From NCBI GenBank assembly GCA_964528535.1, contig CAZGSQ010000019.1:10605-34604 (forward strand): a stretch of 24,000 bases of DNA, in the 5' to 3' direction. A program made the position numbers and the translations under genes. Shown here piece by piece: positions 14,373-15,770 of this stretch; the first letter of the stretch is position 1; the number at the start of each line of letters is the position of its first letter. The notes under the pieces were generated by a model that was not told the DNA's origin, made no database searches, and worked only from the letters and a program-made list of their open reading frames with translations. Origin of the DNA: an uncultured Tangfeifania sp. (GTDB taxonomy: Bacteria; Bacteroidota; Bacteroidia; Bacteroidales; Prolixibacteraceae).

Positions 14373-15770
14373 TTATGTATTTCTATTCTTCCCATACCTT
14401 ACTTTCCCCTCTGCCACCATCCTTAACTCATCCTTCAACTTCTTCCCCTTCCCACCTTTCTCCAACCCAGCTTTGGCTTGTTTGATCTGCTCCAATAAAT
14501 CTTGGGCATCGCCATCGATGGGGAGTTGTTCCACTAGTTCGCCACGGAAGGCTTTGGCCAGCAGGGCTTGTGGCAACTGCTCTATTTTTGCTTTTAGTTT
14601 TTGGTAGCTGGCTTCAATCTTGTCGGCTTTGGCAAATAGGGATTCGACATGTCTTACGATTTCTTGCTGCTCTTCAACTGGCGGAATTGGAATTTCAAAA
14701 TCACGACATTGAGAAAGGGAAATATTGACTTGACCAACCACACCTTTTGTTTCTCCCATAACTTCCCTCACACTCTTCCCTTCACAGAAGAAATAATAGA
14801 GAAAGGTATTCATTAAATATTTCTTAGGCCTAAATAATGTAATTGCCTGATTTAAATTCCACTCTGGATAACTCGCGGGTAAGATTGCAATTTTATTTAA
14901 AGGTGGTCCAACAATATTCATTAGAACATCACCCGGATATGCGATTGACTTGCTAAGGGCTTTGTTTTGTACCTCAATGGTCACAAATTGTGGACGATAT
15001 TCAAAATCAATTTGATTATTGACAATATTATAAACTTTTAAGAACGGAATCCCTTCATCAATAAATCCTCCACCTTTGGGTGTACCTCCGCTTTGTACTT
15101 TGTCACAGCATTTTGAAGCAATTTCTATCTTCCATTCCTTCAACTCCCTCCCTTCTCTCCACTCTTCCGTCAGTTTGCCGGTTACAGCCTGGGTAAGTAC
15201 CTTTTGGCGGAAATCTTTCAGCAATTGTGGTATGCGGTCAAGGCGGGTTTTCAGGGCATCGAGGTGCCCGAACAGGGTATCGAGTTTGGTCACAATGCGC
15301 TGCTGCTCGGGAAGGGGAGGAAGTGGAAATGGGTGTTCTTTAATTACAGTTTGTGATATATTTGGCTGCGCTCCACCTTTACCCTTATCAATAAATCCTT
15401 GTTTTTCAGACTTAAGAAAATAATGAAGAAATTCAGGTATTACTATTTCAGAAGACTTTGCAACTGCGCATGCTTGGTTCGTTGTTGCATCTATGCCAAG
15501 TTTAGCTGTCTAGCCGATTGTTGCACCATACATTGCAATGATAATAGAACCTTTAGAAAAGAGCTTTGCACTTGATTTTTTTAATCCAAGTTCCGTAATA
15601 TACTCACTTGCTTCAAATATTATTGAGTCGTTTAAATCACCTGTCTTTACCCAGGGAATTGTACCATTATAATAATTTGGTTCGCTTCTGTTAGGCGTAC
15701 CACCAGAACCCCATTCTGCAATGACTCCAAGTTTTGTTTCAACCCACCCTTTTGGTAATTCCTTCCCCAT
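14373..15770 (-). pseudogene. hsdS: Type I R-M specificity subunit HsdS interrupted by one in-frame TAG
   Basis: The 86-aa ORF (15510-15770) and the 306-aa ORF (14373-15293) share one frame: 15770-14373+1 = 1398 = 466 codons. My hand translation of 15294-15509 is open and HsdS-like (TAKLGIDATTNQACAVAKSSEIVIPEFLHYFLKSEKQGFIDKGKGGAQPNISQTVIKEHPFPLPPLPEQQRIV). The only break is TAG at 15510-15512 inside MYGATIG*TAKLG. Both conserved coiled-coil regions are present (EQQRIVTKLDTLF... and EEQQEIVRHVESLFAKADKIE...). Confidence 0.85.

Follow-up and report, generated by a model that had tools for sequence, protein, structure and literature searches.

An in-frame amber codon in hsdS of a type I restriction-modification operon from an uncultured Bacteroidota bacterium

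Known half-size specificity (S) subunits in restriction-modification systems of type I consist of a complete target recognition domain (TRD) and one helix that zips with itself. In laboratory hsdS null mutants, the loss of S abolishes both modification and restriction (r- m-). According to PMC3874165, the modification (M) and S subunits of type I systems bind no DNA alone, and both methylation, by M2S, and restriction, by R2M2S with the restriction subunit R, need S. The half-S examples given in that source are EcoR124I delta50, EcoDXXI deltaC and deltaN, and the natural NgoAV, all of type IC as of 2013; EcoDXXI deltaN is given there as a case in which the C-terminal TRD can work without the N-terminal TRD, and the D1 and D2 helices of type IA subunits are described as dissimilar. 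Half-S function was first demonstrated in type IC (PMC3874165), and an engineered half-S has since been shown to work in one Staphylococcus aureus system (PMC6158711). Here we describe the hsdS gene of a 24,000-nucleotide stretch, referred to as the window, from an uncultured Tangfeifania sp. (GenBank assembly GCA_964528535.1, contig CAZGSQ010000019.1, positions 10,605 to 34,604). It is interrupted by one in-frame TAG, and we consider it quite likely to be a genuine, probably recent nonsense allele that leaves the system, as judged from its sequence, most likely without methylation or restriction.

The genes match those of EcoKI, and the hsd system can be classed by sequence as EcoKI-like, type IA; further criteria for family membership given in PMC3874165 are genetic complementation and cross-reaction of antibodies. 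HsdM aligned with EcoKI M (2y7c_B; E 7e-118) over its whole length, residues 3-484, and HsdS aligned with EcoKI S (2y7c_A; E 9.5e-42) with near-identical stretches in the central (CR1) and distal (CR2) conserved regions. HsdR scored 1364.6 bits with the NCBIfam equivalog NF008521 (cut-off 729), and the model for HsdR of EcoAI, a type IB enzyme, stayed under its cut-off (246 vs 550). The Pfam domains of HsdR are HSDR_N, ResIII, Helicase_C and EcoEI_R_C, with an extra N-terminal DUF4145. Type IB was first suggested by the EcoEI_R_C domain and was rejected on the EcoKI matches of M and S and the NF008521 match of R.

The likeness to EcoKI lies in the TRD1-CR1-TRD2-CR2 layout of S, the whole-length match of M, the match of S at its conserved helices and the NF008521 match of HsdR. 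The two systems differ in host, since the window comes from an uncultured Prolixibacteraceae-like Bacteroidota bacterium and the closest named relative of its hsd locus is a Prolixibacteraceae metagenome-assembled genome (MAG). They also differ in gene order, which is hsdR-RAYT-hsdM-hsdS-KAP NTPase in the window, in the additional DUF4145 of HsdR, and in the hsdM/hsdS junction, where the hsdM stop lies 4 nt ahead of the hsdS ATG instead of a 1-nt overlap. Also, the window does not contain an uninterrupted hsdS with two TRDs and two helices, as codon 87 is TAG, and there is no second hsdS in the assembled genome.

Codon 87 of the hsdS frame

Translation of the minus strand from 15770 to 14373 gave a single hsdS frame, 465 codons long and closed by TAA. 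Its sole internal stop is codon 87, a TAG at 15512..15510 in the context MYGATIG*TAKLG. The open reading frame (ORF) listing divides the gene into an 86-aa ORF (15510..15770) and a 306-aa ORF from a GTG at 15293, and public records annotate the two pieces as two genes. The 72 codons that separate them, 88-159, are open. The original prediction had stated that the two hsdS-like ORFs share one frame, that the codons between them are open and that the TAG is the only lesion, and the translation reproduced all of this. With the TAG read as a residue, two Pfam Methylase_S matches were found (E 3.5e-43), and the frame read through aligned end to end with full-length HsdS proteins. The first 639 nt showed 91.7% nucleotide identity to L011, with no indels and no further stop.

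The replaced codon was identified by comparing orthologous hsdS alleles, as had been proposed with the original prediction. In all four relatives with the same TRD1 (P0009, P0010, P0012 and P0013), position 87 is Lys, within YGATIGKTAKLG, and a TAG at this codon was found in none of the aligned relatives. The predicted Lys was therefore correct, but the single step from AAG to TAG was not borne out: codon 87 is AAA in L011, L124 and L125, the three closest genes compared as DNA. By this comparison the TAG would be two substitutions away from AAA, or one from an AAG intermediate that was not seen.

The same lesion was present in a second assembly. A 688-bp contig (L128; NODE_603552, coverage 1.56) of ENA assembly ERZ4200879 encodes precisely the same 86-aa product and is 100% identical to window positions 15407-16094, TAG included. 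We take ERZ4200879 to be a separate assembly since an identical stretch would not occur twice in one de Bruijn graph assembly. Exact look-ups of the 306-aa ORF and of HsdM gave no match in other assemblies, and a second contig was obtained for the 86-aa stub alone. As a matter of method, an in-frame stop in a MAG was corroborated here by the same truncated product on a separate low-coverage contig.

TAG is also an ordinary stop in this genome, which is a MAG of 386 contigs (N50 24 kb, 86.8% complete, 6.2% contamination). It ends 271 of the 1305 long frames (21%), and none of the 31 tRNAs found in the MAG has a stop-reading or CUA anticodon. Recoding is therefore not indicated, and an alternative genetic code or a suppressor tRNA was rejected on these grounds, with the absence of a CUA-anticodon tRNA unproven in a genome that is about 87% complete.

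A domain map of HsdS was obtained by AlphaFold modelling on the alignment (mean pLDDT 85.4) and is shown in Table 1 with the other features of the operon. The model places residue 87 midway through TRD1, directly before strand 88-91, and shows the C-terminal tail past CR2 as disordered. The 86-aa product is thus predicted to be half a domain without a helix, which would make it useless as a specificity subunit.

Table 1. Features of the hsd operon and the basis on which each was assigned
Feature	Position	Strand	Basis
hsdS, whole frame	14373..15770	-	Translation; Pfam Methylase_S x2; alignment with full-length HsdS; EcoKI S match
In-frame amber TAG, codon 87, replacing Lys of YGATIGKTAKLG	15510..15512	-	Sequence; relatives; contig L128
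N-terminal 86-aa ORF, first half of TRD1, predicted non-functional	15510..15770	-	ORF list; model
TRD1, residues 1-150; allele common to L011, L124, L125	15321..15770	-	Model; nucleotide identity to L011
CR1, central conserved helix, residues 153-205	15156..15314	-	Model helices 153-177, 180-197, 199-205; EcoKI S match
306-aa ORF from GTG (residue 160): most of CR1, TRD2, CR2, tail; expression doubtful	14373..15293	-	Gene-caller product (P0002)
TRD2, residues 214-362; allele common to L012, L127, P0003-P0007	14685..15131	-	Model; alignment; nucleotide identity
CR2, distal conserved helix, residues 365-408	14547..14678	-	Model
hsdM, intact, 485 aa	15775..17232	-	Pfam N6_Mtase + HsdM_N; same length as four orthologues
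hsdR, intact, 1077 aa	18079..21312	-	NCBIfam NF008521; same length as L012, L015, L127
Y1 (IS200-like/RAYT) transposase gene, hsdR-hsdM slot	17492..17947	-	Pfam Y1_Tnp
hsdR-hsdM cargo slot	window 17233-18078; L127:3472-4292; L012:3341-3862; L011:2261-3367; L015:3386-4528		

Next, the age of the lesion was considered from the constraint on the three genes. The ratio of non-synonymous to synonymous change (dN/dS) of hsdS against its relatives was 0.08-0.21, upstream and downstream of the stop alike, and controls between intact genes gave 0.11-0.14. On the window branch, hsdM changed at 39 synonymous and 4 non-synonymous codons, a ratio of 0.10 (0-0.24 in relatives with an intact hsdS), and hsdR had 81 synonymous and 23 non-synonymous changes, a ratio of 0.28 (0.31-0.37 in such relatives). 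The lengths of hsdM and hsdR are exactly those of their orthologues. The lesion looks recent because hsdS has no second defect and a dN/dS like that of intact relatives, and because hsdM and hsdR are full length and constrained.

We propose that the Lys codon at position 87 became TAG recently, in the middle of TRD1, and that the cell would now make an 86-residue stub and presumably no functional S. Intact HsdM and HsdR would then be left without a target and the system would be silent, since M2S and R2M2S both need S. The most likely state would be r- m-, which by analogy is the outcome seen in classical hsdS null mutants, and this would be a safe way of losing a restriction system. Among the alternatives raised by the original prediction, decay of the type I system comes closest to this outcome in that function was probably lost, but progressive decay does not fit, as hsdM and hsdR are full length and unrelaxed and a single recent knock-out is indicated. 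The window hsdS is most likely an ordinary gene knock-out rather than a novel class of half-size targeting protein.

Three points weigh against this interpretation. ERZ4200879 may share reads with the MAG. A locus that retains some function would be just as consistent with the constraint seen on hsdM, on hsdR and on hsdS downstream of the TAG, and a very recent stop appears to be the simpler reading of these sequences. Also, the MAG is incomplete, so a second, unassembled hsdS may exist.

Rescue by another S subunit was considered and rejected, as no other Methylase_S locus or hsdS fragment was found in the assembled genome and its second hsdM comes from a different family. This second hsdM-type gene lies on contig C332 (1760 bp) at 323-1759, matched N6_Mtase at E 3.5e-99 and is 28% identical to the window HsdM. 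Its sequence suggests that it belongs to a further type I system, from another family, which is probably only partly assembled.

Phase-variable hsdS loci include those with simple-sequence-repeat switches and those with an inverton or shufflon (e.g., pneumococcal SpnIII, tvr). The window resembles them in its split hsdS. It differs in that the lesion is a plain base substitution: no simple repeat, silent hsdS cassette or recombinase was found for the hsdS break, and at the TAG there was no meaningful inverted repeat or hairpin (local DNA fold z = 0.20 vs shuffled). A phase-variation switch based on a repeat tract, an inverton or a hairpin was rejected on these results. The only 20-nt inverted repeat, 90% complementary (14434-14453 / 15309-15328), brackets CR1-TRD2-CR2 and is not conserved in relatives, where the match falls to 14-16 of 24 positions. 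To judge by its sequence, it most likely results from coding constraints and is not an inversion site, because pyrimidine-rich PLPPLP codons oppose purine-rich GGKGKK codons.

Broken hsdS genes were also counted in the genus. Across 25 genomes, about 135 Methylase_S matches included 5 with stops, the window gene among them, which makes a break in hsdS an ordinary, minority condition there. For annotation, the 86-aa and 306-aa public ORFs would be best treated as pieces of one hsdS pseudogene, and censuses of defence systems should count this MAG's type I system as probably inactive.

The hsdS gene is also a mosaic. Its TRD1 is nearest to L011 at the identity given above, and CR1-TRD2-CR2 is nearest to L012 (89.6% nucleotide identity); TRD2 is 85.9% identical to that of L127. 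Both parts have diverged about as much as hsdM (88-90%), and the pattern is what ordinary TRD shuffling among alleles of the operon family would produce.

Other readings of the interrupted frame

The alternative that survives best, though it is improbable, is that the TAG is a consensus or assembly artefact or a minority variant, in which case most cells would have the Lys codon and a functional system. The MAG is fragmented and has 6.2% contamination, and relaxed selection is not evident in hsdS, hsdM or hsdR, in line with this alternative. However, the low-coverage contig of ERZ4200879 carries the same TAG within 688 bp at 100% identity, which makes the sequencing error that the original prediction had allowed for unlikely. 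The TAG also differs from the AAA of relatives by two bases and not one, and the site lies outside any homopolymer or repeat. Finally, no intact copy of the TAG-bearing allele was found in scans of genome contigs and metagenome contigs, where the nearest full-length relatives share one TRD each with the window hsdS, and the best full-length protein match among 5.8 billion protein clusters searched was only 67% identical.

Another possible explanation, to which we give very little weight, is that a one-TRD S starting at the GTG at 15293 joins HsdM and HsdR and directs them to a new symmetric or half-site target. This product would contain CR1 from residue 160, TRD2 and CR2. The 306-aa ORF does retain a complete TRD2, CR2 and most of CR1, its partner genes hsdM and hsdR are still constrained, and an engineered half-S is functional in the S. 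aureus system (PMC6158711). As in NgoAV, EcoR124I(delta50) and the EcoDXXI deltas, the interrupted hsdS encodes less than a full two-TRD subunit. In those systems, however, the surviving product is a complete TRD with a dimerisation helix and has its own start. The window stop instead interrupts TRD1 and leaves a stub as the N-terminal product, while the C-terminal ORF has two helices, belongs to an IA-like family and is without a credible start. NgoAV also switches at a poly-G tract, and the window hsdS has no repeat tract.

The context of the GTG argues against its use as a start. The original prediction was right that it is an in-frame start, but it does not lie at the beginning of the first conserved region; it is residue 160, about 8 residues into the helix of 153-205. 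In the 30 nt upstream of it, AT makes up 37% and A 13%, purine-rich stretches are absent, and the context is GC-rich and structured (local fold -14.4 kcal/mol). For the other starts listed in the window, AT content is 50-87%, a range in which this GTG does not fall, and fold energies are -2 to -10 kcal/mol except at one doubtful TTG (orf490). The GTG also lies 216 nt past the stop, probably too far for termination-reinitiation coupling. An internal promoter is not indicated either, as no Bacteroidota -7 box was found on the minus strand inside hsdS upstream of the GTG. A scan for sigma-70 promoters and terminators was uninformative for a Bacteroidota genome.

The structure of the fragment is a further difficulty for a half-size S. 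The 86-aa product lacks a complete TRD and a dimerisation helix, and the 306-aa ORF has these parts in a two-helix layout. A fragment with both helices would favour an intramolecular zipper with one TRD position empty over a symmetric dimer. The family is EcoKI-like, and CR1 shares 17 of 59 positions with CR2, mostly within the PxPPxxEQQxIV junction motif, which falls short of the mutual helix similarity that allows self-zippering in type IC. Also, the TAG allele is a single instance and not recurrent among relatives. The re-specification through a half-S offered by the original prediction is thus disfavoured by a TRD1 cut in mid-domain, the atypical context of the GTG and the type IA-like family.

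More generally, the TAG allele could persist because the locus still works, with internally initiated CR1-TRD2-CR2 as a one-TRD S or, as a remoter variant, with full-length S made by a phage suppressor. The presence of the TAG in two assemblies and the constraint still seen on both partner genes and the remainder of hsdS would fit such a locus, but we regard this as highly unlikely. If a working one-TRD S did exist in this type IA system, half-S specificity switching would extend beyond type IC in nature; otherwise, the locus has little significance beyond its correct annotation.

The least likely reading, with hardly any probability, is that natural misreading of UAG yields a little full-length S, or that full-length S appears only upon infection by a TAG-recoded Bacteroidota phage that supplies an amber suppressor tRNA. 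The frame has no other flaw, the partner genes are constrained and TAG-to-Gln recoding with suppressor tRNAs is described in crAss-like phages, which infect Bacteroidetes (PMC9523058, PMC7886860), but the proposal is pure conjecture. No relative has TAG at codon 87, nothing suggests selection for it, the 31 tRNAs found include no suppressor, and no structure that would promote read-through lies nearby (fold z-score 0.20). Under the phage variant, an unmethylated cell would suddenly gain an active restriction enzyme, with an outcome like abortive infection.

The operon family and its cargo positions

The gap between hsdR and hsdM contains the Y1 transposase gene, which the original prediction had read as a sign of decay. 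This argument did not hold, as an orthologue occupies the same slot of L127 beside an intact hsdR and an intact hsdS. Orthologous Y1/RAYT genes were found in this slot in both L126 and L127 at 82.5% nucleotide identity, which is as diverged as the flanking genes, and hsdS is intact (472 aa) in both. Other relatives differ in the slot's occupant: L012, where hsdS is intact too, has another, distinct Y1 transposase (36% aa identity), L011 a PDDEXK_4 gene and L015 a Fic gene. These comparisons indicate that the hsdR-hsdM gap is a cargo position of the operon family and that the RAYT is an old resident and not a fresh insertion. The transposon is thus best read as a long-standing occupant of this slot and no mark of decay. 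It is curious that two unrelated Y1 transposases are found at one slot. Three RAYT homologues (100%, 76% and 35% identity) are present in the same genome.

A second cargo position lies between hsdM and hsdS, where L011 (4889-5986) and L124 (482-1579) have a DUF1016/YhcG (nuclease-like) gene. After hsdS, a KAP NTPase gene is present in the window (12208-14361) and in L015. It is missing from L126 and L127 (L127:7419-7516) and would therefore be an insertion/deletion difference between close operons. In L126 and L127, a pair of an MqsR-like toxin and a PanA-like antitoxin directly follows hsdS.

Finally, hsdR was called in two pieces in L126 (339-3084; 253 + 663 aa), and it is one 1077-aa gene in the near-identical L127 (230-3463). 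The hsdR of L011 (1-2259) was likewise called in two pieces, of 670 and 351 aa. Assembly errors would explain these split calls, or else they represent further independent knock-outs in the operon family.

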